IMG/VR virus record: IMGVR_UViG_3300020450_000008
Source: a virus
Taxonomy: Duplodnaviria; Caudoviricetes
Reading direction: 5' to 3' (one strand)
Length of the DNA stretch: 64,000 bases
A program made the position numbers and the translations under genes. The notes beneath the pieces are model-generated. The model had not been told where the DNA came from. It saw only the letters and a program-made list of their open reading frames with translations, and ran no database searches. The number at the start of each line of letters is the position of its first letter. Positions within the stretch are counted from its first letter, which is position 1. Shown one piece after another: positions 4,993-63,239 of this stretch.

Positions 4993-6836
4993 TGGCAACA
5001 AATATTTCATCAACAGCTTTAGATTTTATTAATATAAAAGAAAAGCTTAAAACTTATTTAGCAGCAAAAAGTGAATTTGCTGATTATGATTTTGAGGGAT
5101 CTGGTTTGTCGAATATTTTAGATGTTTTAGCGTATAATACACATTTTAATGGTATAGTTGCAAACATGGCTTTAAATGAAGCTTTTATACATACAGCTCA
5201 ATTAAGATCTTCTCTAGTTTCTCATGCTGAATCATTAGGTTTCAATATAAGATCTAAAACTTCAGCTCAAGCAAAATTTACAGCAACTTTAAATTTAAAC
5301 GGAGTTGCCGGTAGAGCTGCTTCGTATACTTTGCCAATAAATTCAGTCATAAGTGGATTTAATGAAGAAGGAACTTTTTCTTTTTTGACTCAAGAAGTTT
5401 ATACCGCGACAGATGATGGTGCTGGATTATATACGTTCAAAGATGCTGATGGAGTTGCTACAGTTACAGCTTTTGAAGGAAGCACTCAAACCAAAACATT
5501 TTTTGTAGGACAAAAAACTGATAGGCAAATATTTGTTATATCAGATGAGAATATTGATACTACAACTGCAGTAGTAAAAGTATTTCCAGATACTACATCA
5601 ACAGCTTTTGTAGAATTTACACCTTTAGAAAAAGCAATAAAAGTAGATTCTAATTCTACTTATTACACTTTAAGAGAAACACCTAATGGTGGATATGAAT
5701 TAAACTTTGGAGATGGAGTTACATTTGGAAAGGCTCCAGAAGCAGGAAGTAAGATAGTGGTAACTTACTTAAGATCAAATGGCCCTTTAGCAAATGATTG
5801 TAAACAATTCACAACTTCAATCGTATATCAAATCAATGCTGCTAATTATTCACTTAATATTGTTCCTACAACAACATCTGTAGGTGGCGGAGAAAAACAA
5901 TCCATAGAATCAATAAGACAATTAGCACCTTCGGCTTTTGCAACACAACAAAGACTTGTTACTTCTGAAGATTATAGAGCTACAATTGCTGCTAATTTTC
6001 CAACAGTATCAGACGTTTCAGTCTGGGGAGGTGAAGATAATATTCCAGTTGATTACGGAAAAGCATATATAAGTCTGACATTCAATGATGGATTAACTGA
6101 AGCATCAAAGACAATAATAAGAAATCAAATTAAAGAAAATTTTTCTGACAATCTTTCAGTTATGTCAATAACTCCTGAGTTTGTTGATCCAGCTGTGTGC
6201 AGAATAGAGATGATTGTATCATTTGCCTTTAATCCAGATTTGACAGGTTCGACAAGTACTGCATTGGAAGACAGAGCCCGTCAAGGTGTAAGAGATTATT
6301 TTACAACAATTAGTGGCTTTGGCAAAACATTTAGAAGATCAAACGTTCTTACTGATATAGACGAGTTAAGTGCTGCAGTGCTAAATTCCTCAATGATAAT
6401 AAAGTTACAGATGAGACTAGAACCCGTGTTAAATGCTGCAGGAAGTTATTCAATAGTTTATCCTGTTAAATTAGCTATACCAGATGATGTTAATCATATA
6501 GTTGAATCATCACTTTTTGAACATAGTGAAGCTGATGGAATTTGTAAAATTGTGAATCAATTAGGAACTAATGTTTTACAAATCGTAAATGTTTCAGATA
6601 ATAATGCAGTTGTAGTTGGTAATATAGGATCATACAGTAGTTCTTCAGGCGAAATAAAATTAGATAATTTTACGCCTACCACTATTCTTAGTGGAGATAA
6701 TTTTATTAAATTTTCTGCAACACCCGCAGATCAAACAACAGTCAAGGCTTTGAGAAACTTTACTTTTGAAATAGATGAAGATAAGTTTACAGTCGGAGCT
6801 ATAATAGATAGGGAAGATGTAAGAGTAACGCTATAA
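4992..6836 (+). CDS. gp6: Baseplate wedge subunit gp6
   Basis: LDF..IK..LK.YL....EF.DYDFEGSGLS.ILDVLAYNTH......NM..NE.F..TAQLRSS.VSHA..LG and APSAFATQQRLVT.EDY; 614 aa. Confidence 0.95.
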   Translation: MATNISSTALDFINIKEKLKTYLAAKSEFADYDFEGSGLSNILDVLAYNTHFNGIVANMALNEAFIHTAQLRSSLVSHAESLGFNIRSKTSAQAKFTATLNLNGVAGRAASYTLPINSVISGFNEEGTFSFLTQEVYTATDDGAGLYTFKDADGVATVTAFEGSTQTKTFFVGQKTDRQIFVISDENIDTTTAVVKVFPDTTSTAFVEFTPLEKAIKVDSNSTYYTLRETPNGGYELNFGDGVTFGKAPEAGSKIVVTYLRSNGPLANDCKQFTTSIVYQINAANYSLNIVPTTTSVGGGEKQSIESIRQLAPSAFATQQRLVTSEDYRATIAANFPTVSDVSVWGGEDNIPVDYGKAYISLTFNDGLTEASKTIIRNQIKENFSDNLSVMSITPEFVDPAVCRIEMIVSFAFNPDLTGSTSTALEDRARQGVRDYFTTISGFGKTFRRSNVLTDIDELSAAVLNSSMIIKLQMRLEPVLNAAGSYSIVYPVKLAIPDDVNHIVESSLFEHSEADGICKIVNQLGTNVLQIVNVSDNNAVVVGNIGSYSSSSGEIKLDNFTPTTILSGDNFIKFSATPADQTTVKALRNFTFEIDEDKFTVGAIIDREDVRVTL

Positions 6837-7918
6837 TGGCTCAACAAACTTTAACAGATTATGATCGCTTAGAAATAAGCTTTAAAAGGAATCTTGTAAG
6901 AGAAGTTCTTCCTGAATATTTTGCAGGTGAATATCCTAATATAATAACTTTTTTAGAAGGTTATTATGATTTCTTAGACAGTGCAGATAACTTTGGTGAT
7001 ATGATAAATGATTTATACACCATAAGAGATATTGAAGCTTCCTCACTTTTACATTTAGATAATATGTTTAAAGAATATGCTTTAGGAATGTCTCAAGATT
7101 TCTTTAAAAAACCTAGAGAAATATTAAGAAACTTTGCAAGATTCTTTAGAGTAAAAGGATCCAAGTATTCAGCTGAAGGTTTCTTTAGAGGATTTTTTGG
7201 TGAAGATATTGAAGTATCATATCCTAAAACAGATATATTTACTTTAAATGATTCTTCGCATGAGATAGGATCTCATAGTGTTAGTGTATTACAAGATGGA
7301 GAAGCATTTCAAATTTTATCAATTATGATAAAATCACCCTTGTCATTTAATAGATGGGGTGAGTTATATAAAAAGTTTGTACATCCAGTAGGATTCTTTT
7401 TATCGAATGAAGTATTGATAACAGCACAGAATGTAAGTACATTTAGTGCTCTTGGCGCGATATTTGATTCAACTAAAGGTGCTGATCTTCCATTACTTGT
7501 ATTTGATGAAATAACTGGTGTAATTGCCAATCCTTTTGCTGATACAACTATTATGGAGTTAATGGGTGCAACATCATACATACTGGACGGTGCAGGACGT
7601 GAAGTTAATTTTCCAACTACCAATGGAACATATACTGCACTTAGAACTCCAGCCTTTGGTTTAAATGATTCAACGATAAGTTATACTTCACATGATCCAG
7701 GAAGTAATACCGTATTTAATGTAAGATTGGATCCAGATGAGACGATAAGAAAATATAAAGACTTTTCAGTGGATAGTTTAGATACAACGTATGCATCTTT
7801 ATTTGAAATAGGAAAGGCAAGTAGTCCAAAATTTGATAGAGATTCTATTGATGGTGCTACAATTAGAATGTCAAATACAATTGAAAGATTTGACGAAGCT
7901 ACCTATGATTCTCACTGA
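6836..7918 (+). CDS. gp7: Baseplate wedge gp7-like protein (short form)
   Basis: Lies between gp6 and gp8; VREVLPEYF...YP....FLE.YYDFL, KGSKYS...FFR.FFGE...V.YPK..I and VHPVGF motifs; much shorter than T4 gp7. Confidence 0.65.
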   Translation: MAQQTLTDYDRLEISFKRNLVREVLPEYFAGEYPNIITFLEGYYDFLDSADNFGDMINDLYTIRDIEASSLLHLDNMFKEYALGMSQDFFKKPREILRNFARFFRVKGSKYSAEGFFRGFFGEDIEVSYPKTDIFTLNDSSHEIGSHSVSVLQDGEAFQILSIMIKSPLSFNRWGELYKKFVHPVGFFLSNEVLITAQNVSTFSALGAIFDSTKGADLPLLVFDEITGVIANPFADTTIMELMGATSYILDGAGREVNFPTTNGTYTALRTPAFGLNDSTISYTSHDPGSNTVFNVRLDPDETIRKYKDFSVDSLDTTYASLFEIGKASSPKFDRDSIDGATIRMSNTIERFDEATYDSH

Positions 7919-7925
7919 AAAAAGA

Positions 7926-7933
7926 TATAAATA
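7926..7933 (+). promoter_or_regulatory. T4-type late promoter
   Basis: Exact TATAAATA in the gp7-gp8 intergenic gap. Confidence 0.8.
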
Positions 7934-7958
7934 AACAAAAAAGAAATGGGAAAACGAT

Positions 7959-9302
7959 ATGGCCGCTATATTAACTGACAGATTAAAATTAAAAATAGTC
8001 GATGATATAGTTAAGATATTTGAGGATACTACAAATCCTGCTTACATCGGGTTTGCAAGATCTGAGCAATGGGATAGTACTGATACTGCACCTGCACCTC
8101 TTGCAAGCTTAAATGATGAAAGAAATTTTAATTATAGTCTACAATCAATAAAAAGAATTTCAGCCGTATCGACTGTTGTACCTCGAGTCAATTGGACTAA
8201 TGGAACAATATATCATCAATGGGACGATAAAACAGTAGGATATGGTACTAATTCATTCTATGTATTAACTGAAAATTTTAGTGTGTATATATGTTTAAGA
8301 TCTGGAAGGAATGCTGCAGGTCAATTAGTTCCTTCTACAGTTCAACCTACAGGATCTAATAACGATCCTTTTGTAACAGCCGATGGATATGTTTGGAAAT
8401 TTTTGTATACAATCAGTGAGATTGAAGCAAGAAGGTTTATGACTGCTGGATTCATGCCAACTAAAGTTGTAACTTCTACAGATTCAAACGCTACAGGAAT
8501 AGAATTAAAACAAGAAGAAATACAAAATACTGCTGATCCCAGAAGAATAACATCAGTAGTAGTAGAAAATGGTGGTACTGGCTACACATCAGCTCCTAAT
8601 ATTTTTATAAGAGGTGATGGTGACAGTAACTTTTCTTTAACTGCAACTATCAATGGTGGAGTAGTTACTAAAATAGAATTTGATGCTGATTCATCTACGT
8701 TAAAATACGCGGCTGGTTATACAAAAGCTACGGTTGACATAATTGGCGGCGGTGGATCCGGAGCAAAAGCTCGTGCAATTATAGGACCTGCTGAAGGATT
8801 TGGTAAGAATTCTAAATTAGATCTTAAAACTAGCGCATTAGTACTTCACTCTAAAGTTGAAGGAGCTGATAGTGATTTTATTTTAGGCAATGATTTCAGA
8901 CAAATTGGTATTTTGAGTCATGCTAAAAAGATTGGAAGTGATTCTACTTTTACTGCTCTTACTGGTTTAGTTTTAAATCACATGACCTTATCGGCGACAA
9001 GTCAAGTATTTTCAGCTGATAAGAAAATAGTAGGTGCGACTTCAGGTGCTAAAGCCTTTATAGATAAAGTAGATTCCAATTTAATTTTCTTTCATCAAAC
9101 TTCAGAAACTGGATTTAATTCTTTTTCAGCTGGTGAAACACTTACAGAAAGCAATGGAACAGGTAATGGTGTTATTGGTACTCCACTTATCAAAGGTGAA
9201 GTAGAACCACATTCGCATCAGTTGCTATATCTAAATAATAGAGGCGCGATTGAAAGATCTGCAACTCAGTCTGAAGACATAAAAATTATTATACAATTAT
9301 AA
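7959..9302 (+). CDS. gp8: Baseplate wedge subunit gp8
   Basis: YIGFARSEQW...P.P; VVPRVNWTNGTIY..WDD....YVLTENF.VY.CL; DGYVWKFLYTI; DFRQIGI; LLYLNNR..I.RS..Q.EDIKIIIQL. Confidence 0.93.
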   Translation: MAAILTDRLKLKIVDDIVKIFEDTTNPAYIGFARSEQWDSTDTAPAPLASLNDERNFNYSLQSIKRISAVSTVVPRVNWTNGTIYHQWDDKTVGYGTNSFYVLTENFSVYICLRSGRNAAGQLVPSTVQPTGSNNDPFVTADGYVWKFLYTISEIEARRFMTAGFMPTKVVTSTDSNATGIELKQEEIQNTADPRRITSVVVENGGTGYTSAPNIFIRGDGDSNFSLTATINGGVVTKIEFDADSSTLKYAAGYTKATVDIIGGGGSGAKARAIIGPAEGFGKNSKLDLKTSALVLHSKVEGADSDFILGNDFRQIGILSHAKKIGSDSTFTALTGLVLNHMTLSATSQVFSADKKIVGATSGAKAFIDKVDSNLIFFHQTSETGFNSFSAGETLTESNGTGNGVIGTPLIKGEVEPHSHQLLYLNNRGAIERSATQSEDIKIIIQL

Positions 9303-9312
9303 AGGTTAGTTC

Positions 9313-14400: not shown

Positions 14401-14401
14401 A

Positions 14402-14617
14402 ATGAAACTAGTTAAAGTTGATAACAATTCAAATTTAGTAAAAGACGAAGAAACTGGTGCAGTTTTAAATAATAATGTTGAAGACGTAGAAAAGGCAAAA
14501 GAAATAAAAGAAAAAAGAATTGAAAAAGAAGAAGAACTTGTTCAATTAAAAAATGATGTAAGCGAGTTAAAAGATATGATGAAACAACTATTAGAAAAGA
14601 TGAATAACGATGGCTAG
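14402..14617 (+). CDS. Small conserved virion-cluster protein with coiled coil
   Basis: LVKV....NLVKDEETGAVLN followed by a coiled coil; GGAG SD-like upstream; coupled to the next ORF. Confidence 0.7.
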   Translation: MKLVKVDNNSNLVKDEETGAVLNNNVEDVEKAKEIKEKRIEKEEELVQLKNDVSELKDMMKQLLEKMNNDG

Positions 14618-15095
14618 AAAAACTTTTGTAGATTTAAGCGACACACTAAACGCTTTTAGAGTTAAGGCAAACCTAATCTCGTTCAATGTTGGAGATTTGG
14701 ATAGTCTTGCGGCATCACTACCTGATTCAGATTTAGTTCAAGCTATTAATCATTTAAACGGAGCTATTAGTGGAAATGACTCAGATATTGCGGCTCTACA
14801 AACATTTATTGGATTTGGTGGTGGAGGAGGAACAAGCCTTCTTCAACAAATATTAAATAATGATTCTGATATTGCTTCTTTACAAGTTGCAGATTCAGAT
14901 CTTTTAAATTTACAATCACAGATAACTAGCAATGATTCTGATATTGTTAATTTACAATCACAGATAACTGGTAATGATTCTGATATTGCTGCGATTAATA
15001 ATACTGGTTTAATAAGAACAGCAAGCTTAGCTATATTGAGATCTGATGGAAATGTAGTTAAAAGGATTTTTGGTTATACTGATTCAGGAGTATAA
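14610..15095 (+). CDS. Short fibre/coiled-coil protein with NDSDI repeats
   Basis: Four NDSDI(A/V) repeats in heptad register; 8 DS in 161 aa. Confidence 0.7.
   Translation: MARKTFVDLSDTLNAFRVKANLISFNVGDLDSLAASLPDSDLVQAINHLNGAISGNDSDIAALQTFIGFGGGGGTSLLQQILNNDSDIASLQVADSDLLNLQSQITSNDSDIVNLQSQITGNDSDIAAINNTGLIRTASLAILRSDGNVVKRIFGYTDSGV
14907..14990 (+). repeat. 42-bp tandem duplication (two heptads)
   Basis: aatttacaatcacagataact(agc/ggt)aatgattctgatattg(tt/ct) occurs twice in tandem. Confidence 0.9.
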
Positions 15096-15097
15096 CA

Positions 15098-16114: not shown

Positions 16115-16129
16115 AATGGGATTTATATT

Positions 16130-16555
16130 ATGGCATTATTCTCAAAAGGTTTCGTAACCGCAAACTTTGTTGACCCCTCAAAATCAGTAATACAAGTAAT
16201 TTATAAAGAAGGCGATGAATTCGTTAATCACTATGTAGATAACGCATGGGGTCATCCGGAGTTTGAAGCTTTACTAAAATTAATTGACCTTGAAGAAATA
16301 GAAAAGAAATGGGACGAAGGTATGAGATCTCAAGAAGAAACTCAAACCAAAGAAAAAAGCCCACTTGAGACATCAGAAGGTGTAATCAATTTTATAACAG
16401 AAAATAATACTAATATAAAATATGTTTTTCCTTTTAAAGTTCAAGCATTAAAAATAGCAACGACAAAAGAAGATAAAAAGAATATTCAAAGTGCAAAAAC
16501 AATATTTGAAGTTATCTCAATATTAGCAGATCATGAAAGGTCTGTAAATGGCTAA
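16130..16555 (+). CDS. Hypothetical protein at the head of the glycosyltransferase cassette
   Basis: 141-aa ORF overlapping the next start by 8 nt; no function recognised. Confidence 0.65.
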   Translation: MALFSKGFVTANFVDPSKSVIQVIYKEGDEFVNHYVDNAWGHPEFEALLKLIDLEEIEKKWDEGMRSQEETQTKEKSPLETSEGVINFITENNTNIKYVFPFKVQALKIATTKEDKKNIQSAKTIFEVISILADHERSVNG

Positions 16556-17306
16556 CTATATTGTTTACCTTCAATGGGGTGAAAGATACACACAACAACA
16601 CATTGATAGATTATTTGATCAAGTAAATAAAAATTGCTCAGTTCCTTTTGAATTTATGACAATGAGACAATGTCATGTCGGTGATGATTTTAATCATTTA
16701 CAATACATACAAAATCAAACTTATAGAGGTGATGGTGATCCAGAGTCTTCTATAACAGAGGAAACACAATCTATACTAAGAGAAGATGCTGGTGGGATGT
16801 GTCATTTTAGAAAATTTTTAATGTTTAGATATGATTGGGATTATTTTGAAGATGATGATACTATTTTATACTTGGATTTAGATTCAATAATACTAAAAGA
16901 TCTAGCATATTTTTTCGAACTCAAAAATGATAAACCTTGGATAGCTCGAAGTTATGATATGGATGAGAATGGTATGTGGCAAAGATTATACAGATACAGA
17001 AGCTGTCCATATTATAATAGTTCTGTTCTGGTTTGGAAGCCAGGACAAAATAGAAAGATTATTAATGAATTTAAAAGATCAGATATTGTATACAAAAATT
17101 TTTATCAGTATGGAATGATAGATAATTGGCTACATCATAGATTTGGACCTTGGGCCTACAATGATAAAAACCGTAATTGGTTTAATACATATCCTCCTGA
17201 TATTGTTAATACTAATGACAATAAAGTACTTACAGATGACACTATAATTAGATCCCTTGCGGGTATGACACAAAAAGAAAAGGATGAAATATTATGCTTG
17301 TCATAA
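16548..17306 (+). CDS. Glycosyltransferase, GT-A fold (GT8-like), paralog 1
   Basis: N-term VYLQWGERY; ILYLDLD (DxD motif); YNSSVLVWKP; D.W acceptor-site-like segment. Confidence 0.75.
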   Translation: MANYIVYLQWGERYTQQHIDRLFDQVNKNCSVPFEFMTMRQCHVGDDFNHLQYIQNQTYRGDGDPESSITEETQSILREDAGGMCHFRKFLMFRYDWDYFEDDDTILYLDLDSIILKDLAYFFELKNDKPWIARSYDMDENGMWQRLYRYRSCPYYNSSVLVWKPGQNRKIINEFKRSDIVYKNFYQYGMIDNWLHHRFGPWAYNDKNRNWFNTYPPDIVNTNDNKVLTDDTIIRSLAGMTQKEKDEILCLS

Positions 17307-17920
17307 AAGAAGAAGATGCTGGTTTATTTGAATCATTAAAAAACGCTTTTTTTAGATTAGACGGTAAGTATCAATTTTTAAGAGAAGAATTTTTAAAAAG
17401 TTTATCGCCAAGAATCATGCAAAGAACTATCTGGTGTTATGATGAGCTAGAAAAGTTGCGTATGGAATTTAAGAAGATTGGCGTATTGAACAGTGGTTAT
17501 CAGCATTTCCAAGGGATGTTTTGGAAACAACTTAAAGCCGAACATGTTTTTCTTTATAACCTGGATGAAAATGTAAAACATATTAATTGGGCTACTTTAG
17601 ATTATTTAAAAAAAGATAATATTCAATTAAACCAAAGAACTTTAGACATAACTATTGATAAACAATTCATAGATAATCCAGATTTGCTAGTAAACCTATC
17701 TTGTGAAAATACTTTTGACATGGCTGGATCTTGGGAAAAAGATTCATTCAATTCGCAGCCTATATATGCATTCAGTGGTACAAGACTTTATGAAAGAGGT
17801 CACATTAATTTTTGTGATAATTTAAAAGAATTTAAAAACACTCTTCCAAAATTTGATGAGATACTATATGAAGCTGAAAGAGAAGACTGTTTTTTTGTTA
17901 TAGGAAAATTTAATGAATAG
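17294..17920 (+). CDS. Class I SAM-methyltransferase-fold protein, paralog 1
   Basis: IGVLNSG motif-I-like strand, acidic residue after beta2 (YNLDE), LLVNLSCEN, GHIN....L.EFK; paralogous to 18562-19140. Confidence 0.5.
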   Translation: MLVIKEEDAGLFESLKNAFFRLDGKYQFLREEFLKSLSPRIMQRTIWCYDELEKLRMEFKKIGVLNSGYQHFQGMFWKQLKAEHVFLYNLDENVKHINWATLDYLKKDNIQLNQRTLDITIDKQFIDNPDLLVNLSCENTFDMAGSWEKDSFNSQPIYAFSGTRLYERGHINFCDNLKEFKNTLPKFDEILYEAEREDCFFVIGKFNE

Positions 17921-18572
17921 AATAATTTGTGCTAAGTGGGGTGATTATCAAGATAATACTATAACACAGTTATTTAATAATGTAAAGGAAAAAAGTTCAG
18001 TTCCTTTTACTTTTGAGTGTTTTACTGAATTTAGCGATGAATTTGATAAGTACCAGTATCAAAGAGATCACTGTCATCATTGGGATCAAGGTGGTCTTCC
18101 ACATGCTAATAAACTTCAGCTATTTAAATTAGATGAAAAGTTTGATAAAGAAGACAAAATACTTTATCTTGATCTTGACGTAACGATTACTGATGATATA
18201 GGTTACTTTTTTGAATTACCAAATGATAAGCCTTATATAATTTACAATCACTGGTGGTATGAACAGAATGATGATTGGAAAAGACAGTATAATATTGCGC
18301 ATTGTCCTTTATATAATAGTTCTGTAATGCTTTGGAAACCAGGACAAAATAAACCCATATATAGCTTTGTAAAAGAAAATACTGATAAAATATTTTTTAC
18401 GTATAGAGGAATAGATACCTTTATGTTTCATACATTTGGTCCATACTGTACAAAACCCAGAGCCAATCACTTTAATTATTTTAATGACGGCATAATTACA
18501 TCAGAAAGACTTCATGGTGAGGCAACGGGGATCGTTCATTCTTACGAAGGAATAGAAAAGAATGGAATATAA
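17913..18572 (+). CDS. Glycosyltransferase, GT-A fold (GT8-like), paralog 2
   Basis: ICAKWG; ILYLDLDV; CPLYNSSVMLWKPGQN nearly identical to paralog 1; GIDTF. Confidence 0.78.
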   Translation: MNRIICAKWGDYQDNTITQLFNNVKEKSSVPFTFECFTEFSDEFDKYQYQRDHCHHWDQGGLPHANKLQLFKLDEKFDKEDKILYLDLDVTITDDIGYFFELPNDKPYIIYNHWWYEQNDDWKRQYNIAHCPLYNSSVMLWKPGQNKPIYSFVKENTDKIFFTYRGIDTFMFHTFGPYCTKPRANHFNYFNDGIITSERLHGEATGIVHSYEGIEKNGI

Positions 18573-19140
18573 ATTTGCTGAAAGACTAGAAAGAGTTTTA
18601 AATAAAACTATTTGGTCATACCCTTTTGCCATTGAGCATGTACGTGATCAATTAGGAACTACAGAATTTAAGATTCAAAGATGGTGGGCTGATAAAATTG
18701 ACCTTAACGAAAAACGTGTCAATATATTAAACTCTGGCATTGGTTTTTATTCAGTTCCTTTTGCAGAAGAAAAAGGAGCAATTGAAATAAACACATACGA
18801 TATGGATCCTATGACTAGAGAAATAATTACTGGTAGTAATCATAATATTTGTAACACGATATTTGATATAGATGATATTAGTGAAGCAGAAGTTTGGATC
18901 AATACGAGTTGCGAACATACCTATCCTATGTATGATATAATTCCAAAAGGAACAACATGTGTAATGAGTTCTAATAATTTAAGAAAAAGAGGACATATTA
19001 ATCCCGCTTCTAGCCTTGATGAATTTAAAGAACAATTATATATTTCTGAATTGATAGAAATGGACATTTTAACTTTTGATTTTGAAGATGATGAAGGCAA
19101 AAGAAGTTATGACCAATACTTAGTGATAGGAGTAAAGTGA
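18562..19140 (+). CDS. Class I SAM-methyltransferase-fold protein, paralog 2
   Basis: VNILNSGIG motif I, YDMDP motif II, WINTSCEH, SSNN...GHIN..SLDEFKEQ, closing YDQYLVIGVK strand. Confidence 0.6.
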   Translation: MEYKFAERLERVLNKTIWSYPFAIEHVRDQLGTTEFKIQRWWADKIDLNEKRVNILNSGIGFYSVPFAEEKGAIEINTYDMDPMTREIITGSNHNICNTIFDIDDISEAEVWINTSCEHTYPMYDIIPKGTTCVMSSNNLRKRGHINPASSLDEFKEQLYISELIEMDILTFDFEDDEGKRSYDQYLVIGVK

Positions 19141-20003
19141 AAGAAGTAAATGGGCATGAACTTATTCCATGGGGTAAACCATGGTTTATTGAATCCTTAC
19201 TTGATTATAGAGGCAATATAACTTTTTTTGATCAAGAAAAAATACCTACTAAAAAAGAAATCATTGATATATTAACTGTGGTTCACGAAAGAATGCCTCA
19301 CAATAATATGAAATGGCATTACAAATTAAAAGTTTTAGGACCTGATGATGAGGAAATAAAAAGAAAACTTACAATAGGTTCGGTATGTCTTGAAAATGGA
19401 AGAGGTGCTGTAAAAAAATTTGATACACCAGAAAAATGGAAACCAATAGAAGAAGCTTATGATAAATGGAGAGCATACCAATTAGATGAAACAAGATGGA
19501 AGCAAAATAAGCACCATGTATGTGAAGATGGAACAATCATACCTTTTCCACACCAAGGATCCGATAATCCAGATATTAAAGGATTTAACGAGCAACTAAG
19601 AGCACCATGGGTAATATTATATCAAAAGGGAAAAAATAATTTATATCCAAGTATAAAGAAAAAAACACTTAAGTTATATGAACGGGGTGGTTGGGATAGT
19701 AAAGTAAAATCAGGAGAAATAGATATGAACATGGCGGCTATACAAATGGGACAGCACAGTACATTGACCTCATTGTTAGCATTAGAAGCTGGATTTGATG
19801 TATCTTATTGTAAATGTTTATTTCAGCCAGGACTAAAACAACTACAAATAGATGAAACAGATTTTGCACTTTCAATAGGTTATCCTACTTTACCTAGAAG
19901 ATCTCACTCACTGAGCTCTATACTACCTCCTTGTGAGGGTTATAAATATTCCGGAAGGCTTGGTAGATACCGACCAAAAATAAATGAAATAATTGAATGG
20001 TAA
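19137..20003 (+). CDS. Nitroreductase-fold (FMN oxidoreductase-like) protein
   Basis: LLDYR.NITFF..EKIP.KKEI..IL; P..N..W.Y...VLGP; RAPWVI; LLALEAGFDVSYCKC; SIGYP; GTG start overlapping the previous stop. Confidence 0.6.
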   Translation: MKEVNGHELIPWGKPWFIESLLDYRGNITFFDQEKIPTKKEIIDILTVVHERMPHNNMKWHYKLKVLGPDDEEIKRKLTIGSVCLENGRGAVKKFDTPEKWKPIEEAYDKWRAYQLDETRWKQNKHHVCEDGTIIPFPHQGSDNPDIKGFNEQLRAPWVILYQKGKNNLYPSIKKKTLKLYERGGWDSKVKSGEIDMNMAAIQMGQHSTLTSLLALEAGFDVSYCKCLFQPGLKQLQIDETDFALSIGYPTLPRRSHSLSSILPPCEGYKYSGRLGRYRPKINEIIEW

Positions 20004-20925
20004 AACTATGAAGAAGCGAATAATATTTTCAATGTATATTGATATTCCCGAAGACAAACTTGATGAAACAGGATATTCAAGAAGTGCTGCTGGTAATAGA
20101 CATCGAACTCCAAGAGCGGCGGAAACCAAAGACAAACTTAAAGCATTTAAAAATCATTTAATGTGGACACAAAAGGCTTATGCTGATCAGTGTGATGCTG
20201 ATTATATGCTTTTTGTTACTGATAAAATGTGGTTGGATTACTATATTAAATGTAGACAATATCATGATAAAATACCAATGTATCATATACTTAATTATTA
20301 TAAGCATCATTTGATGTATGTTTTAGCCGATGAATATGATGAAGTTTTTTATTGTGATATTGATATAATTCCTGTTACTAAAGAAAACATATTTGAAGTA
20401 CATGATATGTCTTACTTTTGGTCAAAAAATAATAATGAATTGGCTGAATATGGAAAAAATTGTGATCTTACAGAATATTTAAGTTGCGATAGAAATCCAG
20501 CAACTAAATATTGGAATGCATACGCATTACTTTTACAAGAAGGTTATGAACCTGAATGCGATGTAATTAATACTGGAACTATGATAGGTGGTAAACAAGT
20601 TATAAAAGAAGTCAACTGGCCAAATGAGCTTCCAGTTCTAATTGAAAAATTAAAATATTTACAAGAAGATAAAACCACTATGTTTCCAGATGCCTTACAT
20701 AGTAGATTTGCTTTTGATAATGAAACAATGTTTAGCTATCTTATTAAAGCAAAGGGTTTTAAATATGCATCTCTTACCGATGCATGGCATGGAAGATTGC
20801 CTGACAATGGAATAAATCCTGATCATAAAATTATTCATGCGATTAATAAGAAATTTGAATTTATTTGGCCAGATGCATATTCTGAATATGATGGTCGAAG
20901 CTTTGATGAAACCAGGCCATATTAA
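19993..20925 (+). CDS. Glycosyltransferase, GT-A fold (GT34/GT8-like); start may be the ATG at 20008
   Basis: YA..CDADY.LF; YK..L....YDEVFYCDIDI (DxD); INTG; DNETMFSY. Confidence 0.7.
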   Translation: MNGKTMKKRIIFSMYIDIPEDKLDETGYSRSAAGNRHRTPRAAETKDKLKAFKNHLMWTQKAYADQCDADYMLFVTDKMWLDYYIKCRQYHDKIPMYHILNYYKHHLMYVLADEYDEVFYCDIDIIPVTKENIFEVHDMSYFWSKNNNELAEYGKNCDLTEYLSCDRNPATKYWNAYALLLQEGYEPECDVINTGTMIGGKQVIKEVNWPNELPVLIEKLKYLQEDKTTMFPDALHSRFAFDNETMFSYLIKAKGFKYASLTDAWHGRLPDNGINPDHKIIHAINKKFEFIWPDAYSEYDGRSFDETRPY

Positions 20926-21593
20926 TGAAAGTATTTTGTTTAAGAATCGGGAACAAGTATGGACCCGAATATGAAAGATATATTGAAAAAAAGTTAGAAG
21001 ATTATGATTTAACTTGGGTTAGAGAGCCTCTTGATAAACGTGTCGCTTTACAATGGAATAAAATGTTTTTGATGGGTCTTGATATTGATGAGCCCATATG
21101 TGTAATTGACATTGATTTAATATTTCTCAATGACTATAAAAAGTTATTTGATTATCCAATACGCAGAGGTCAGTTTTTAACAATAAGAGCTTGGTGGGAT
21201 TCGTATCAAGATTTTAAAATCAATGGTGGTTTTTTTAAATATTACCCAAAAGACTGTAAATTTATGTTAGATAAGTTTATTAGCAATATTGAATATTGGC
21301 AAAGGATTTATATTACTAAAGGATTAACAACAGGTCCTGTGAATGGAGAACAATTTTTTGTAGAACAACATGCTGTTGAAGAACTCGACATACTTACATT
21401 TGATGATAGATGGGTAACCAACTGGAGTAATACTCCTGATTGGAATAATCAAGTTCATACTAAATATAAACAATATTATAATGAAACTTTAATTAGCGAT
21501 GATAAATTTAATGACCATATTAAATTAATACACTTTACAACTTCCAGAAACAAACCACATGAATGTGAACTGTTTAGCCACTTGTACACTTGA
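20925..21593 (+). CDS. Glycosyltransferase, GT-A fold, paralog 3
   Basis: FCLRIGNKYGPEY; WNK..L; CVIDIDL (DxD); INGGF; GEQ.F; IKLIHFT...KPH C-terminal motif typical of GT8-like enzymes. Confidence 0.75.
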   Translation: MKVFCLRIGNKYGPEYERYIEKKLEDYDLTWVREPLDKRVALQWNKMFLMGLDIDEPICVIDIDLIFLNDYKKLFDYPIRRGQFLTIRAWWDSYQDFKINGGFFKYYPKDCKFMLDKFISNIEYWQRIYITKGLTTGPVNGEQFFVEQHAVEELDILTFDDRWVTNWSNTPDWNNQVHTKYKQYYNETLISDDKFNDHIKLIHFTTSRNKPHECELFSHLYT

Positions 21594-21598
21594 ATCTG

Positions 21599-21606
21599 TA
21601 TAAATA
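21599..21606 (+). promoter_or_regulatory. T4-type late promoter followed by a leader hairpin (21615-21640)
   Basis: Exact TATAAATA intergenic; downstream GAGGTT-TAGA-AACCTC stem-loop, then AGGAG SD. Confidence 0.8.
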
Positions 21607-25627: not shown

Positions 25628-28600
25628 ATGGCAATTTCTACTGATCAAAAGTTAGACTTTTTATGGAAGAAACTCGGTTATGGTAAAACTAAAACCGATA
25701 TTAATTCTATTAAAGCAGCCACAAACGAAGCGATTCCAAGTCCGCTTCTCCTTACTGGTACCGACTTATGGACTGATGCTTATCAAATACCTGGAACAAA
25801 ACCATCTGCTGATACCACTGTAATAGGTCTATATCAGGACGCAGCTGGAGGTGCAAGTAGTGTAGAATGTATCGCTGATGGTACAGCATCGGCTAATCGA
25901 ACTTGGAAAACAAATCTTACTAATTGGATCCCACCTCAGTTTGGCTCAACTTATGGAATTAAAGTTTATTTAGATAACGCTAGTCAAGCTAATCCACAAA
26001 GTACAGGTACAGAATTATTTGCCGCTGGTTCTGGAAATAATGATGAATGGTTTTTTGATTATGCATCTGGTGTTCTTAATTTTATTGGAACAAATCTTCC
26101 AAGCGGTATAGCAGGAAAAAAGATATATATCGTTGGTGCTCGATATATAGGTAAGCTTGGAAATAGATTTACAGCTCTTTATGTTGATTCAGCGGAAATA
26201 AATCATCTTATAGTTGATTCATCAGAAGTTACTTTAACTAATATTATAGAAGCATATATCGATTCTGCGGATATAATGCATGCAATCATAGATTCTGCCG
26301 ATATAACACTTGGTAAGATAGGAACAGCAACATTAACGAACATGACTGCAGATTCTGCTCATGTTAAAACTTTAAGTGCTGATACAATTTACACACCACA
26401 ACTTGATGTTAACATAGTTGTTGCTAATCAGTTACAAGGACCTGCAGAATTAATTATTGATCCTGCAGCTACGGGTGATAATACTGGAAATGTTAAGATA
26501 CTTGGTGGACTTCAAGTTGAAGGGACTACAACCACCGTTAACTCAACAACAGTAAGTTTAAACGATAAGAATTTAGTATTAGCAGACTCTGCTCCAAATC
26601 CTGCCGCTGCTGATGGAGGCGGTATAACTGTAGGTGGTGCAAATGCAACTCTTGAATATAAAGTACTAGGTGATAAATGGGAAGTTAATAAACCATTTCA
26701 TGCTCCTGAATTACATGCTGATTCTGGAGAAATAGTTTCACTTACAGCGACTTCAGGTACAATAGGATCTGTAACTATTGATAGCGCTACTATAAGTCAA
26801 ATTAGTGGTGATTCTGCTCATATTAAATTTATTAAATCAGACTCAGCAGATATAATATTTGGAAAATTTGACTCAGCTAAAATTGATTTTGCAGAAGTAG
26901 ATTTTATTGATGCAAGTTATGGTAATGTTGATTCAGTTGATATTGGTACAGCTAGAATTAATAGTTTACAATTAGCTGGTCAAATACCAAATAGGTTTAT
27001 GGTAAGTGACAGTCTTGGAAACATGACTACTGTGACGGATGCTCAGTTTGGTCCATCTCTTGTCAATCTGTATCAAGGTGCTTTTCAAGTTCAATCTAAT
27101 GGTAATGTTGGAATAGGTAATCAACTAACAGTTGGTGGTGTTACAGTTGAAAGAACTGGAATGACTATTCCACATTTAACAACTGATAAAGTTGTAATAA
27201 CATCATTATCTGATCAACATATTCCTTTTGTTTCAAATAATGATTCTTTAGCACAAAGTGTTAACTTTCAATTTGGTTCAAAATCATCGCAATATGCTCC
27301 AGGAACTTTTGATGGTTTATTAATAGGTTGGAATCCTCTTCAAGACTCTGGTACTTATCGATTTAATGTTGATCAGACTTCAGGTAAAGTAACATCATAT
27401 GGTGGTGCAAAACTTGGTAGACACAACAGAATGGCAGTTGGCCAGTACATTCAGAATTTTCCACAAGGTGATCCTAATTCGTTTAATAGAGATTTCTTTG
27501 GATTAGAAATTTCAAATGATTCTGGTAACTTAATATCAACTGCTTACAAAAATATATTTAAATCACCCATGCCAACTGAAATTACTGGAACGGGACCTGA
27601 TAGCGCGTATGTTTTTGAAATTAGATCTTTTCCAGATCCAGGTTATGAGGACAGTACTCTTTTTGCTGTACGAAGAGATGGATCTATTGCCATCAGAGGA
27701 AATCTTTTAAAAGGCGACAATATAACTGGCTTTTCTGCTGGTGGGATATTTAATCAAAATGAATCAAGTAGAGATGCATTTTATTTTAATGATCCAGCTG
27801 AATATGGACCAACAGGTAGCAAAAGTATAAATCATTATACTTTTGGAAGAGTTGGTCTAGGAACTAAAACTCCACTATATTCTTTTAGCACTGAAGGCAA
27901 CTTTGCATCTAGAGGCGAAATAGACTCTAATAAACTAGAACATTTATTATATAGACCAAAATATTATGGTTATACTGATGATAGTTCTAGAGCTAGATTA
28001 GCATTCATTCCAAGTAAGGCAATGACACGTGGTGGATTCTTTAAGGATAGTAGTTTTAATTCAAATGTAATGGGAATGTTCTCAACAGCGTTTGGTGCTG
28101 AAACAATAGCAACAGGCGTAGGTACATTTGCCGCTGGTTGGGCATCAAAGGCTTTAGGTGATCATGCAATTGCAATAGGCCACAATAATACAACTGGAAA
28201 TACTGGAAACAAAGCTGGAGTTGCAATTGGTGTATTCAACCAGTTTGATTCAAGTTTTGGTCAGGCAGATCATTCAATTGCTATTGGTTTAGAAAATAGA
28301 GTTCGTGGTGATTTTGCTACTGCAATAGGAGAAAGAAATACAGTTGCAGGAAATAATGCTGGTATATTTGGATCTAAAAACTCTATTGGACTTTATGCAG
28401 ATGGAACTTCAGGCACCGTTAATGGAGCAAATTCATACGCCATTGGTAATAATAATGAAATTGGAAAAGCTGTAAGTGCATTACAGTTTGGTACTAATAA
28501 TATTACATCGACTGGTGCATCAACTTCTATTGCTATTGGTTTTAATCATAAAGTAAGAAATCAGCAAGCAATAGCAATAGGTACAAATAATATTATTAAT

Positions 28601-36529: not shown

Positions 36530-36532
36530 ATA
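36525..36532 (+). promoter_or_regulatory. T4-type late promoter overlapping the stop codon of the 3633-aa gene
   Basis: Exact TATAAATA, 34 nt before the next ATG. Confidence 0.78.
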
Positions 36533-36566
36533 GAAAAATAAACTAACGCCACGGGGAAAGTGAACT

Positions 36567-47372: not shown

Positions 47373-47375
47373 TCC

Positions 47376-49210: not shown

Positions 49211-49223
49211 GGAGCAAGAATAG

Positions 49224-51728: not shown

Positions 51729-51730
51729 TA

Positions 51731-55264: not shown

Positions 55265-55276
55265 AAAACTTTTTAT

Positions 55277-55284
55277 TATAAATA
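55277..55284 (+). promoter_or_regulatory. T4-type late promoter
   Basis: Exact TATAAATA intergenic, ~75 nt upstream of gp18. Confidence 0.82.
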
Positions 55285-55358
55285 TAGTATAATTGAACAT
55301 AACCGTATCATGATTTTTAAAAACTTATAATTAATCACTTGGAAAAAGGAAACGAGAC

Positions 55359-57110: not shown

Positions 57111-57113
57111 ATA
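57106..57113 (+). promoter_or_regulatory. T4-type late promoter overlapping the gp18 stop codon
   Basis: Exact TATAAATA 18 nt before the gp19 ATG; AAGGAG SD follows. Confidence 0.8.
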
Positions 57114-57131
57114 ACGTTAAGGAGATAAAAA

Positions 57132-57749: not shown

Positions 57750-57764
57750 TATTGAATAAATAAA

Positions 57765-57790
57765 TGTGGGGGGCAGAAATGCCCCTCATA
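57765..57790 (+). terminator. GC-rich GNRA stem-loop between gp19 and gp20 (terminator or 5' stabiliser), preceded by a late-promoter variant AATAAATA at 57755-57762
   Basis: GGGGCA-GAAA-TGCCCC core stem extendable with G:U pairs; no clear poly-U on the + strand. Confidence 0.55.
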
Positions 57791-57807
57791 ATTAGAAAAG
57801 GATTGTA

Positions 57808-59352: not shown

Positions 59353-62300
59353 TGGCAGACATATTAAAATACAGATTACCAGATGGAACAGAGGCAGAAG
59401 TAACATCTAACACTTCTAGTGTAACTCTTCCTTTCACAACTCCACATTTAGACTTTACTGTAATACTCGATCAACTTGCTGTTAATCCAGGTGAGGTTCG
59501 TGGTTGGTATGTTTCGTCAAGTACTTACTTTTCTCCTACATTATCAGGCAATTACAATTATAGACTTGAACTTATTGAGGGACAAACTAGAACAGTTACT
59601 ATACAAACTGTTGATGCTAAGAATACTTCTGATTTAAATTCAGGAAGATTTAGTTCTTTTAGAGATAACTTTTCTATAACAGTAACAAGAGGATCTGCTC
59701 CAGCAGATTCATCTGCTGATTCAACTACTCAATCATTTTTAACTTTTCCAGATAGTGATGCAAGGTTAACAATTGAAGGAAATCAGATTGTTTTAACTGA
59801 TAGTAATTTTCAGTTTAATATTTCTGCACTTGATGTTATTGATTCTGCATACATTCAAGCCCGACAAGCATTTAGTACTTTTGATTCAAATGAAGTTGTT
59901 GCATTAATAAATGCAAATACACCTACTTTAATTGAAAATTCAGTTCCTCTGGATTCTTCTACTGTAAGTGCCATAATAAACAATCAAGTAGATTCTAACT
60001 ATGTATCAGGAAGACAAATAATAGGAAGTGATTCAGCTTCTATAATTACTATTGTCAATAGCATAGTTGATTCAGCATATGTTTCACTAAGAGATAGAGT
60101 ACAGGATTCTGGGTTTGTAACTGGAATCGTAGATGCTGCATATGTCCAAGCAAGAGATAGAATAAGAGACTCTGGTTTTGTAACAAATGTAATTGATTCA
60201 AATTATATCATATCTATACTTGACGACAGTTCATTAACTATTGATGGTAATGGCTTAAATAACGGTGTAACTATATCGGATGGTTCTATTGTTATGAGAA
60301 CAGGAACTGGAAGTGTTGCCGCTATTGATATGTATTGTGAAGTTAATAATATACATAGAGTAAGATTAAAGGCACCTTCACATTCTAACTTCAGTGGTAA
60401 TCCAGATGTCATATTACCAAACACTTCCGGAACTATTGCTCTTACATCAGATATTACCGGAACCGTAACAGCTTCTTACATTCAAGCAAACCAAACAAAA
60501 TTTTTAGATTCATCTCTTGCAACTCAACTTATAGATGCTTCTTACATTCAAGCCCGACAGCTTTTTGATTCAGATACTTTAAGAGACTCTGGTTTTATAA
60601 CTGGAATAATAACTCCAGAATATATTCAAGCAAGACAAATGTTTGACTCAGATACTTTAAGAGATTCTGGATTTATAACTGGAATTATAGATTCAGACTA
60701 TATTAATAATAGAACCGCTTCTGGAACTGATTCTACAGCTGTATTAGCAATGATAACCACAACAATTACTCCAGGTTATATTCAGGCAAGACAGCTTTTT
60801 GACTCAGATACTAAAGTAGATTCGGCCTTTGTAACTAGTATAGTTGATGCCGCTTATGTTCAAGCAAGAGATAGAATAAGAGACTCTGGTTTTGTAACTG
60901 ATATTTTATTACCTAATGAGTTTGCAAAAGATAGTGCAGTAAAATTATACTTTGCTGGTACCAAAAAATTTGAAACAACAGACTCAGGCGTTGATGTTCA
61001 AGGTGATCTTACACTTGTACAAAATAATGCTAGAATTAAACTCGGTGGACTGATACTTAGAGATAGTAATGGAGCACTTGCAATAAAAGATTCAGCAGGA
61101 ATTGCAACCTCAATAACTTTTTCAAATCAGTTTGATTCTTCAACAGCATTATCTTTAATTGACTCTGCGTATGTACAGGCAAGACAAGTTGATCTTCAAA
61201 GAGAGTCTGGTTTTATAATTGGTATTGTGGATACAGCATATGTTCAAGCAAGACAGAGTTTTGGCGCTGCTGGTGATTCCACGAGCACGATTGCTATTAT
61301 ACAAAGCGTTGTTAATAATTCTTATGTTCAGGCTAGACAAACTAATTTTGATTTTTTAGATTCAGGAGAAGTTATAAATCTTATAGATTCTAATTATGTT
61401 CAGGCAAGGCAGGTTGATCTTCAAAGAGACTCTGGATTTGTAACTGGAATAATAACTCCAGAATATATTCAAGCAAGGCAACTATTTGATTCAGATACCG
61501 ATACTTTAAGAGATTCTGGATTTATAACTGGAATAATAGATTCAGATTACATTAACAATAGAACTTCAAGTGGTGTTGATTCTGCTACCGTTTTGTCAAT
61601 TGTTGATTCAGATTATATATCTGCAGTTGCAGGTGGATTTGCTAGTCCTAGATTTAAAGACTTTAAATATATAGCAACAAATGCACAAACTACATTTACT
61701 GGTAACGATGCTAATAGTAAAACACTGGCATTAAAAGATAGCAACTTTGCTGTATATTTAAATGGTATAAGACTATTAAGATCTGATTATACATCAACAA
61801 ATACAAGCGTTGTTTTGGATAGCGCGGCAAGTACTGGAGATGAGATAGTAATTAGTGCAATGACAGCTGATTTTCGTGGTTCAGCTGATCTTATCGATTC
61901 CGCTTATATACAAGAGAGAATTGGAGGAGTTATTTCTCCAATATTTACAAACTTTAAATTTATTGCTGATGGAAATCAAACAGAATTTTTTGGTAACGAT
62001 GCTAATGGAAATGGTCTAACTTTTGATTCACATAACTTTAATGTATTGCTTAATGGTATACAATTAGATAGATCAGATTATCATGCTGATGCTGGTGCTA
62101 ATAAAATATTTTTAGTGTCAGGTGCTACTGCATCTGATGAACTTGTAGTTAATACACTTAAGTCAACCATAACATCAACGTTACAAGCAGTTAAAGATAT
62201 AGTAACTCCAGAATATATTCAAGCAAGACAGCTTTTTGACTCAGATACCGATACCAATCTTTCATCTACTGATAGTTTATCTGAAGGATCAACTAATTTG

Positions 62301-63239
62301 TATTTTACAAATGAAAGAGTTGATGACCGTGTAGGCTCACTAATAACAGCAGGCGTTAATGTTGCAACAACGTATGACGATGCAGCTGGAACACTTGAAA
62401 TAAGAGTCCCATTTGAAAACATTGATGATAGAGTTGGAACTATTTTAACTGCCGGTAACGGTATTAATATTAATTATGACGATCCAAATGCCACAATTAC
62501 AATAACTAACACACTTAATACAAGTGATTTTGCAGATTCAGCAACCGTAATCAGTTTGATCGATTCAGCTTTTGGACAGTTAAATGTTGGAGTTATTGAT
62601 ACTGATAACGTATTTCTTCAAGGTGCGACAGATCACGCAGGTATTGCTTTTGGTAGTACTTCTGTTCTTCCTTTTAGAAACGGCAATTATTCAAACGCTA
62701 CTACTGACTTAGGTCACTCTGTTGCCGGCGCTTTCAAAGACGCTTACTTATCGGGTGGACTATACGTTGGTGGAACTGGGTCGGCAAACTATTTAGATGA
62801 CTATGAAGAAGGAACATGGACTCCTACGATTGTTGGTACTTCTAATACTCCTACCTTTTATAATCGAGTTGGAAGATACACAAAAATAGGTAGGTTAGTA
62901 ACACTTCAATGTTTTTTGCAAACTAATGTAGCTCCAACATATTCAAATGCTAATACTCAATTTAAAATATCAGGAGTTCCTTTTAATCTTCTAGCTATTG
63001 GTTATACAGGTGCTCAAGGAACTGTAAATTCACAAGCATTAAGATATGTTTCTGGTGACAACGACCAAAATGCTGGTGCTAGTACTGGTGGTGGTCATCT
63101 AACTTGTGGTATACATGCTGATGAACAATTAATATTTCATGTTACTGGTAGTGGTCAATCAAGAGGTTTTGTTGAAAATAGTGGCACAACTTCAGGATTT
63201 ATTCTTGAAGCAACAATAAGTTATTTTACAGATGCGTAG
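59352..63239 (+). CDS. Fibre protein (1295 aa), extremely DS-rich
   Basis: About 47 DS; RDSGF.TG/IDSxYVQAR repeats; two repeated beta domains; C-term AN.LDDYEEGTWTP...G.YTKIGRLV tip; TAATG coupling to gp20. Confidence 0.85.
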   Translation: MADILKYRLPDGTEAEVTSNTSSVTLPFTTPHLDFTVILDQLAVNPGEVRGWYVSSSTYFSPTLSGNYNYRLELIEGQTRTVTIQTVDAKNTSDLNSGRFSSFRDNFSITVTRGSAPADSSADSTTQSFLTFPDSDARLTIEGNQIVLTDSNFQFNISALDVIDSAYIQARQAFSTFDSNEVVALINANTPTLIENSVPLDSSTVSAIINNQVDSNYVSGRQIIGSDSASIITIVNSIVDSAYVSLRDRVQDSGFVTGIVDAAYVQARDRIRDSGFVTNVIDSNYIISILDDSSLTIDGNGLNNGVTISDGSIVMRTGTGSVAAIDMYCEVNNIHRVRLKAPSHSNFSGNPDVILPNTSGTIALTSDITGTVTASYIQANQTKFLDSSLATQLIDASYIQARQLFDSDTLRDSGFITGIITPEYIQARQMFDSDTLRDSGFITGIIDSDYINNRTASGTDSTAVLAMITTTITPGYIQARQLFDSDTKVDSAFVTSIVDAAYVQARDRIRDSGFVTDILLPNEFAKDSAVKLYFAGTKKFETTDSGVDVQGDLTLVQNNARIKLGGLILRDSNGALAIKDSAGIATSITFSNQFDSSTALSLIDSAYVQARQVDLQRESGFIIGIVDTAYVQARQSFGAAGDSTSTIAIIQSVVNNSYVQARQTNFDFLDSGEVINLIDSNYVQARQVDLQRDSGFVTGIITPEYIQARQLFDSDTDTLRDSGFITGIIDSDYINNRTSSGVDSATVLSIVDSDYISAVAGGFASPRFKDFKYIATNAQTTFTGNDANSKTLALKDSNFAVYLNGIRLLRSDYTSTNTSVVLDSAASTGDEIVISAMTADFRGSADLIDSAYIQERIGGVISPIFTNFKFIADGNQTEFFGNDANGNGLTFDSHNFNVLLNGIQLDRSDYHADAGANKIFLVSGATASDELVVNTLKSTITSTLQAVKDIVTPEYIQARQLFDSDTDTNLSSTDSLSEGSTNLYFTNERVDDRVGSLITAGVNVATTYDDAAGTLEIRVPFENIDDRVGTILTAGNGININYDDPNATITITNTLNTSDFADSATVISLIDSAFGQLNVGVIDTDNVFLQGATDHAGIAFGSTSVLPFRNGNYSNATTDLGHSVAGAFKDAYLSGGLYVGGTGSANYLDDYEEGTWTPTIVGTSNTPTFYNRVGRYTKIGRLVTLQCFLQTNVAPTYSNANTQFKISGVPFNLLAIGYTGAQGTVNSQALRYVSGDNDQNAGASTGGGHLTCGIHADEQLIFHVTGSGQSRGFVENSGTTSGFILEATISYFTDA
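60540..61570 (+). repeat. Near-identical DNA repeats encoding LFDSDTLRDSGFITGIITPEYIQARQ-type units
   Basis: actccagaatatattcaagcaag occurs at ~60613, ~61454 and ~62205; gatactttaagaga(c/t)tctgg occurs three times. Confidence 0.85.

Follow-up and report, generated by a model that had tools for sequence, protein, structure and literature searches.

An excess of Asp-Ser pairs probably marks a family of modular fibre-shaft repeats in uncultured marine T4-like phages

The 64,000-nucleotide stretch of viral DNA analyzed here (the window; IMG/VR record IMGVR_UViG_3300020450_000008) carries the structural module of a T4-like phage, with all long open reading frames (ORFs, named below by their start positions) on the + strand and a G+C content of 31-38%. 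Several of the encoded fibre proteins contain the dipeptide Asp-Ser (DS) far more often than their composition predicts. We consider this excess to be, in all likelihood, the signature of a modular family of fibre-shaft repeats in which Asp serves as a helix- and turn-capping idiom, and that a large set of uncultured marine T4-like phages has in common. For the most part it thus reflects ordinary protein architecture and is no sign of chemical modification. The fibre-repeat family built from DS units appears to be undescribed, and this is the main value of the finding.

The excess was largest in the four big fibres, with 76 DS in ORF 25628 (25.0 expected), 47 in ORF 59352 (12.7), 37 in ORF 36567 (13.5) and 22 in ORF 49224 (7.1). 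Smaller counts were obtained for ORF 15098 (11 versus 3.3 expected), ORF 14610 (8 versus 2.1, the count of SD also being 8), the gp7-like ORF 6836 (7 versus 2.8) and ORF 7959, encoding gp8 (7 versus 2.5). Pooled over nine DS-rich ORFs, 226 DS were observed and 75 expected (z 17.4), making DS the most over-represented dipeptide, with YV as the runner-up (z 6.2); SD occurred about as often as expected and DT at 0.58x. No excess was found in the seven cassette ORFs 16548-21593 (4 versus 5.7 expected) or in the remaining ORFs of the window (43 versus 55.6). When each ORF was shuffled 2000 times, none of the shuffles reached the observed DS count in the four big fibres. Following Bonferroni correction for 35 ORFs, 25628, 59352, 36567, 49224 and 15098 (0.023) were significant, 14610 was borderline (0.056), and gp8 (0.47) and the gp7-like protein (0.92) were not. 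An earlier note on this DNA had drawn attention to DS on the basis of hand counts, all of which proved exact, including 0 in gp16 and gp17 together and 4 in the seven cassette ORFs; the two largest carriers, 25628 and 36567, were absent from its list. Its inclusion of gp7 and gp8 did not hold, since the excess in these two proteins fails the correction and is no more than chance would give, and no DS of gp8 is common to gp8 of phages C48C1 or HTVC008M.

The signal resides in the protein. Serine codons inside DS are 27% AGY compared with 32% for other serines, and because this is the background mix of TCN and AGY codons, DS does not represent a DNA word; a DNA-level motif was rejected as the cause on these grounds. 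A compositional artefact was likewise rejected by the observed-to-expected ratios and the shuffles. The earlier proposal that selection acts on the protein is therefore borne out by the codon mix, together with the finding that, in orthologues of 33-46% identity, DS sites are kept far better than other Asp and Ser residues. The reported motif swaps were also found as described, KKFETTDSG having KKFETTSAG and KKLETTSGG as counterparts, and YIADSGQ having YIATNAQ and YVATEGQ.

Within the proteins the excess is modular, strong in shaft-like stretches and not proteome-wide. Residues ~150-770 of the ORF 59352 protein consist of DS-capped short-helix modules, and its C-terminal head (~1100-1295) has zero DS; nearly all DS of the ORF 36567 protein lie in residues 1-200 and 1140-2158, with a single one in 201-1000. 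No DS excess was found in the head of the 59352 protein, in residues 200-1000 of the 36567 protein or in the LamG protein of ORF 43324 beyond residue 200. Periodic or nonad repeat units (9-residue, 10-residue and composite 18-26-residue forms) hold 118 of the 226 DS. The commonest unit has 9 residues, phi-phi-D-S-x-[YF]-[IV]-x-x, with IDSAYVQARQ as a longer form; composite units are exemplified by DSxxVxxLIDSxYVQAR, and 10-residue DSAxI units occur in the giant fibre (ORF 25628). In the 9-residue array of the same protein Asp is present in every unit and Ser is at times Q or E, and five of the DS of ORF 14610 lie in NDSD-I-x-x-L-Q units ~14 residues apart. Across the 226 sites, hydrophobic residues are enriched at -2/-1, A, D, N and S at +2 (Ala being the commonest), Y (5.9x) and F (2.5x) at +3, and I/V (3.3-3.5x) at +4, and the pattern recurs at -5, -2 and -1, giving a period of 9.

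Could such an excess stem from repeat redundancy only, that is, from recent duplication of one unit with no selection on DS? The share of DS in periodic or motif units and the mosaic nature of the fibres, which share modules, speak for it. However, after masking of the repeat units DS was still the top dipeptide, with 108 observed versus 54.6 expected in the window (1.98x, z 7.2) and 1.75x in 150 homologues. Moreover, the pair is kept across clusters at most 50% identical and in orthologues at 33-46% identity, beyond other Asp and Ser, and the two families of Ser codons occur as often as their background mix predicts. We therefore rejected pure redundancy, which we find scarcely credible.

To see how widely the repeats occur, representative clusters at 50% identity were searched exhaustively with HMMER, residues 150-770 of the 59352 protein serving as the query. 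The search returned 1252 clusters at E <=1e-3 and 357 at 1e-10, many of them proteins of 1000-4600 residues with several matching stretches. Among the best 150 of the 1252 clusters, 5459 DS were counted versus 1688 expected (3.23x; median 3.2), and 124 of the 150 exceeded 2x. The excess is thus a hallmark of the repeat family, and in the fibres the DS are not gains of one lineage. Dipeptides close to DS behave differently in this set: DT (0.51x), DD (0.43x), ES (0.45x) and NS (0.70x) are depleted and SD is neutral (1.03x), with RQ and AR among the most over-represented. The avoidance of ES is stronger still in the window fibres (0.22x), where DD and DT are likewise avoided (0.43-0.54x and 0.5-0.6x across the two sets), and two ES positions of the window are DS in its near twin, the 39.7 kb IMG/VR record G001 (~97% identity across seven aligned ORF pairs).

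The pair preceding xY[IV]QxR is DS in 767 of 858 cases among the best 150 clusters; its first residue is D in 833, N in 13 and T in 11, and its second S in 777, A in 42 and T in 15. The same pair in the window is DS 13 times, DA 5, TP 4, NN 2 and TS, NG, DN and DT once each, so that its first residue is D, T or N in 28 of 28. A degenerate DNA pattern for the exact word DSAYVQARQ, with Ser as TCN only, was found in at least 120 IMG/VR contig stretches of 33-45% G+C, many of which encode gp13-gp15 at 50-80% identity to the window. Among named phages, C48C1 (39% identity in gp6) comes closest, together with cyanomyoviruses and HTVC008M, a pelagiphage (31-34%); neither a DS excess nor, essentially, any such unit occurs in fibres of C48C1, HTVC008M or HTVC011P. 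A tblastn search of 50,697 deposited phage genomes with the nonad segment returned nothing, and window positions 1-20000 gave no match in a near-identity DNA search of phage genomes. None of the four fibres matched a Pfam family above cut-off, PHROG scans gave no informative family, and 80 module segments compared with Pfam gave scattered matches only, each in 1-2 members. A full-text literature search returned no paper on the motif string, nor on a tail fibre with a helix N-cap. In the masked homologue set, YC (59 versus 6.4 expected) and QC are also strongly over-represented; a Y.C..HG.M motif occurs in 19 of the 150 homologues, and two orthologues of the 49224 protein have CY where it has the DS at residue 222.

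The likely role of the pair was approached through predicted structures. Residues 575-770 of the 59352 protein (61074..61661, +) were modelled with AlphaFold2 (AF2) from 79 homologous segments, yielding 14 helices of 7-14 residues each. The residue preceding them is D (11 helices), E, N or T, so an N-cap type of residue (S, T, D or N) stands before 13 of 14 and E before one; in 10 of 12 DS, Asp is predicted to be the non-helical N-cap and Ser the first helical residue. The sequences agree, as the pair before xY[IV]QxR begins with D, N or T in 857 of 858 cases in the family as in all of those in the window. D, T and N are classic N-cap residues and TP-E is a classic helix start. Hydrophobic residues at both N' and N4, the positions of the hydrophobic staple, accompany 71% of repeat-class DS versus 15% of Asp without a following Ser. 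Such N-capping preferences and the staple have reportedly long been established for helices in general. The DS units share with them a D/N/T/S-type residue directly ahead of the helix, an N1 filled by Pro or by something small and polar, hydrophobic N' and N4, and TP-E and DA variants at the same position. They differ in being strictly periodic, every 9 residues, in a trimeric fibre shaft, and in their N1 and N3 residues, discussed below.

A three-copy model of the same segment gave an interaction prediction score from aligned errors (ipSAE) of 0.58 versus 0.00 for the best control; in our calibration, of the proteins solved as one-chain pairs 20 of 30 attained this mark, and of those solved as single chains 1 of 23, counts that were obtained on two copies with their own alignments and hold only roughly for three. 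The three runs had at least 39% of contacts in common, with a partner pLDDT (predicted local distance difference test) of at least 58. The lowest-error contacts join residue i with i, at +3, +4, +7 and +8 from Asp, which indicates that the predicted trimer is parallel and in register; DS is peripheral and contacts one neighbouring chain only. In a continuous helix a period of 9 equals 2.5 turns and would put no stripe on one face, so a break at each Asp is to be expected. The 3-4 spacing of heptads in a continuous helix was not found, the period being 9 with a helix break at each Asp.

We propose, from these predicted models and from capping statistics in the literature, that the commonest module, ~(I/V)-D-S-x-(Y/F)-(I/V)-x-x-phi, forms one short alpha-helix per unit. 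Asp would act as the helix N-cap, its side chain satisfying free backbone NH groups of the first turn, and Ser would open the helix. A hydrophobic-staple-like pair would be made by the hydrophobic residues that precede Asp and that lie at +4 from it, and the residues at +3, +4, +7 and +8 would pack along the axis of the parallel, in-register trimer. DS may also occupy strand-to-turn junctions in the 10-residue beta repeats and scattered turns of the same proteins. Modules of this kind would be copied and exchanged among fibre genes, which would account for the DS idiom in four genes of the window and in many genes elsewhere.

The predicted shaft can be set beside known ones, namely the coiled coil of T4 fibritin, the triple beta-helix of the T4 gp5 and gp12 type and the triple beta-spiral of adenovirus and reovirus. 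Like these it would be a parallel in-register homotrimer made of short repeats around a hydrophobic axis, and the window also encodes a fibritin-like protein. Unlike them it has a period of 9 (18-26 in the composite units), a predicted helix break at every Asp, no heptad coiled coil and a module without a Pfam, PHROG-function or PDB sequence match.

As to the decads, residues 170-470 of the giant fibre were predicted to be beta, the strands ending at Asp and the next turn containing Ser. The earlier claim that DS sits at turns of unrelated folds hence stands for the helix N-termini of the nonads, and for strand ends and turns of the decads at low confidence only. Its implied reading that DS lacks any structural explanation, and so calls for something like a modification ladder, is not supported, as a local N-cap or turn role of Asp with an adjacent small polar residue covers most of it. 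The note had named DS serines that are buried or only at helix N-caps as an outcome that would refute it, and in the helical modules DS is placed at helix N-caps and partly buried. Between the decad blocks (26390-26800, residues ~255-390) lies a module of the type IDP...GD..G.V.I.G.L.V.GTTT.VNS, followed by DKN.VLADSA; this IDP...GD-type module recurs in many fibres of the loci compared, and the decad model is at its most confident there (pLDDT 70-86).

Several observations weigh against reading DS as a capping idiom. The model of residues 575-770 is of moderate confidence (pLDDT 68.5, predicted template modelling score (pTM) 0.21), and with such a pTM its local secondary structure is usable and its global arrangement is not; the decad model is of low confidence (pLDDT 58.6, pTM 0.44) and only a lead. 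Neither the 59352 nor the 49224 fibre has a PDB sequence match at E up to 1, and so a solved structure for comparison is lacking. The E, Q or D of a capping box at N3 was not found, N3 being Y or F, and the Ser at the first helical position is ~90% conserved, above the generic need of capping. The staple signature accompanies 16% of the 106 non-repeat DS versus 15% of any Asp, yet such DS exceed expectation about twofold and are conserved at 33% identity. This residual non-repeat excess is only partly explained; we take these DS to lie at turns or caps as well, in different local surroundings. Finally, the non-repeat protein of ORF 15098 has a DS excess that is absent from its distant homologues and was hence not inherited with a fold.

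Alternatively, DS may be kept, beyond capping, for an inter-subunit role in the trimer, through Asp-Arg or Asp-Gln contacts or ion or water coordination between chains, and such a role would explain the preference for the exact DS pair over other cap dipeptides. The three-copy model does place DS in confident contact with one neighbour around a core of +3, +4, +7 and +8, the canonical unit has a conserved Q-A-R after the aromatic residue (in line with the strong over-representation of RQ and AR in the family), and the conservation of Ser exceeds what capping needs. On the other hand, the short nonads of the giant fibre keep DS without the Q-A-R part, and the pair is present in beta repeats and outside repeats as well. 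We regard this role as unlikely, if the least unlikely of the alternatives to capping.

Conservation among orthologues distinguishes the two residues of the pair. Alignment of fibre orthologues is limited by mosaicism, and full-length matches numbered three for 49224 and four for 25628. In the former (43-46% identity) the Asp of DS was kept in 48 of 57 comparisons (84%) and the Ser in 35 of 57 (61%), compared with 60/126 (48%) for other Asp and 53/159 (33%) for other Ser; DS was replaced by DT, DG, DD, DN and DA. The giant-fibre orthologues (~33% identity) have the same excess, 88-124 DS versus 27-38 expected. Their repeat-class DS keep Asp in 113 and Ser in 107 of 156 comparisons, and non-repeat DS keep Asp in 55, Ser in 49 and the pair in 39 of 110, whereas 223/594 of the other Asp and 226/937 of the other Ser are kept; N, Q, T, R, G and V replace the Ser of DS. 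Asp is thus more constrained than Ser, which is often swapped for residues that are not O-modifiable. The near twin G001 keeps the Ser of DS in 130 of 131 cases versus 574 of 607 for other Ser (P 0.02) and is too close for a conservation test. As for ORF 15098, the excess is found only in relatives of at least 90% identity, distant homologues (22-34%) having 0-2 DS, and DS therefore look like lineage-specific gains in this single protein (corrected P 0.02).

The neighbourhood of the fibre genes suggested another explanation, in which DS is a sequon and the serine ladder is O-glycosylated or otherwise modified by glycosyltransferase A (GT-A)-like and methyltransferase-like enzymes of the cassette at 16130-21593, inside the fibre gene cluster. 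Cassette ORFs 16548 and 17913 are GT-A-like paralogues (34% identity), as are 17294 and 18562 paralogues of each other (24%). Two cassette ORFs resemble nucleotide-diphospho-sugar transferases, by a weak Glyco_transf_8 match and by an Atlas feature score of 0.98 to viral nucleotide-diphospho-sugar transferase clusters; for most ORFs of the cassette, Pfam and PHROG offer no family. Related IMG/VR records often encode a homologue of 20925 (14 of 49). The position of the cassette between whisker and fibre genes, with two sugar-transferase-like ORFs, is suggestive. DS is also a regular and, in the three-copy model, largely peripheral feature of the shaft, and the residual twofold excess outside canonical repeats is conserved. 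There is precedent as well, in that glycosylation of mycobacteriophage virions by phage enzymes has been described (Freeman et al. 2023, PMC10527164, cited in PMC12801897), and there phage glycosyltransferase genes reportedly lie in or beside structural genes, as they would here; a difference is that genomes lacking any homologue of the three cassette proteins examined also encode DS-rich fibres.

Most of the sequence evidence points the other way. Asp is conserved above Ser, and Ser is exchanged for G, A, N, D, Q and R, which are unable to carry an O-glycan. Thr after Asp is disfavoured (DT 0.5-0.6x; 0.58x in the DS-rich ORFs of the window, 0.51x in the 150 homologues), TP and DA fill the DS position too, and the models place Ser inside the helix, touching the neighbouring chain. 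The general O-glycosylation sequon of Bacteroidota is reportedly D-(S/T)-(A/I/L/V/M/T), and DS resembles it in that Asp directly precedes Ser and Ala is the commonest next residue. It departs from the sequon in disfavouring Thr and in its third position, where residues of the A/I/L/V/M/T class follow 92 of 226 DS (41%) versus a background of 40%, with D, S, N or G following in 116 cases; a Bacteroidota-type sequon was rejected by this background share. No signal-peptide-like N-terminus was seen by eye in the first 30 residues of the nine DS-rich proteins, which are virion proteins assembled in the cytoplasm.

Co-occurrence of the cassette with DS-rich fibres was assessed in four records at least 84% complete, a test that is underpowered because most IMG/VR records are fragments, 7-40% complete. 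Three motif-bearing records, G015 (100% complete), G020 and G022 (84-86%), have no homologue of 16548, 19993 or 20925, other transferases not having been searched for, and a further one, G005, has a homologue of 20925 only of these three. Given that limit and the fragmentary records, the result counts against a necessary link between cassette and DS and is no proof of absence; going by these genomes, the cassette is probably not required for DS-rich fibres elsewhere. Taken together, the results take away most of the support for a neighbouring sugar-enzyme cassette decorating the fibres at DS. We hold DS as a sequon for these enzymes to be highly improbable, and marginally more so the specific proposal that serines every ~9-10 residues of the trimeric shaft are substrates of a phage-encoded modification system, here the cassette. 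If that proposal were true, an abundant group of uncultured marine myoviruses would bear a sugar coat on its fibres, attached at a simple D-S sequon.

The capping reading of the shaft family has consequences of its own. The family comprises 1252 metagenome clusters and has no Pfam model, no solved structure and no member among the 50,697 deposited phage genomes searched. DS at ~3x expected together with DSxY[IV]QxR units could serve as an annotation signature for fibre shafts in uncultured marine T4-like phages, and the predicted period-9 broken-helix trimer, if confirmed by a structure, would represent a shaft geometry not seen before. The genes and repeat regions are summarized in Table 1.

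Table 1. Genes and repeat regions of the window, in order of position
Feature	Position	Strand	Remarks
Baseplate hub and wedge genes (gp5-, gp25-, gp6-, gp7-like, gp8-like)	26-9302	+
gp7-like (ORF 6836) and gp8 (ORF 7959) baseplate proteins	6836..9302	+	7 DS each
VrlC-like protein, 1695 aa	after baseplate genes, before ORF 14610
Fibritin-like protein, 161 aa	14610..15095	+	weak Fibritin_C match
Non-repeat protein, 338 aa	15098..16114	+	no assigned function
Eight-ORF enzyme cassette including GT-A-like paralogues	16130..21593	+	followed by fibre-assembly protein gene
Large fibre-like protein	start 22580
Giant fibre, 3633 aa	25628..36529	+	decad repeats, nonad array, many non-repeat DS
Decad region, DSAxIxxxxphi repeats	26135..27037	+	residues 170-470 of giant fibre
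Uninterrupted 9-residue array	35135..35617	+	residues ~3170-3330 of giant fibre
Fibre, 2158 aa	36567..43043	+
Large fibre-like protein with four LamG domains	start 43324
gp13, gp14 and gp15 genes	between ORF 43324 and ORF 49224
Fibre, 834 aa	49224..51728	+	between gp15 and S8 subtilase gene
gp16, gp17, gp18, gp19 and gp20 (portal)	after subtilase gene, before ORF 59352
Fibre, 1295 aa	59352..63239	+	downstream of portal gene

A few further observations concern individual genes. The gp5-like hub is apparently divided among three ORFs (26-4508) with overlapping stops and starts, comprising an N-terminal gp5-like part of 304 aa, a part of 517 aa with an amidase domain and a part of 673 aa resembling the gp5 C-terminus. 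The DS-rich fibre gene 49224 is immediately followed by an S8 subtilase gene (51731-53311; Peptidase_S8, E 1.6e-26); the gp15-gp16 interval is an unusual site for a protease gene, which may relate to fibre maturation. Pelagiphage HTVC008M has four genes resembling 2OG-Fe(II)/phytanoyl-CoA dioxygenases and one resembling ferrochelatase between its fibre and neck genes (36403-39682 of locus L004), which makes it a further marine T4-like phage with enzyme genes clustered inside its structural module. Finally, the C-terminal head of the 59352 protein (62544-63227, residues ~1065-1292) shares 33-57% identity, in stretches of 60-230 residues, with proteins (tail-fibre or hypothetical) from phages of Pelagibacter, Roseobacter and Methylophilales and with cyanophage proteins, a similarity that suggests exchange of receptor-binding domains across phage types and hints at the host range of the group.

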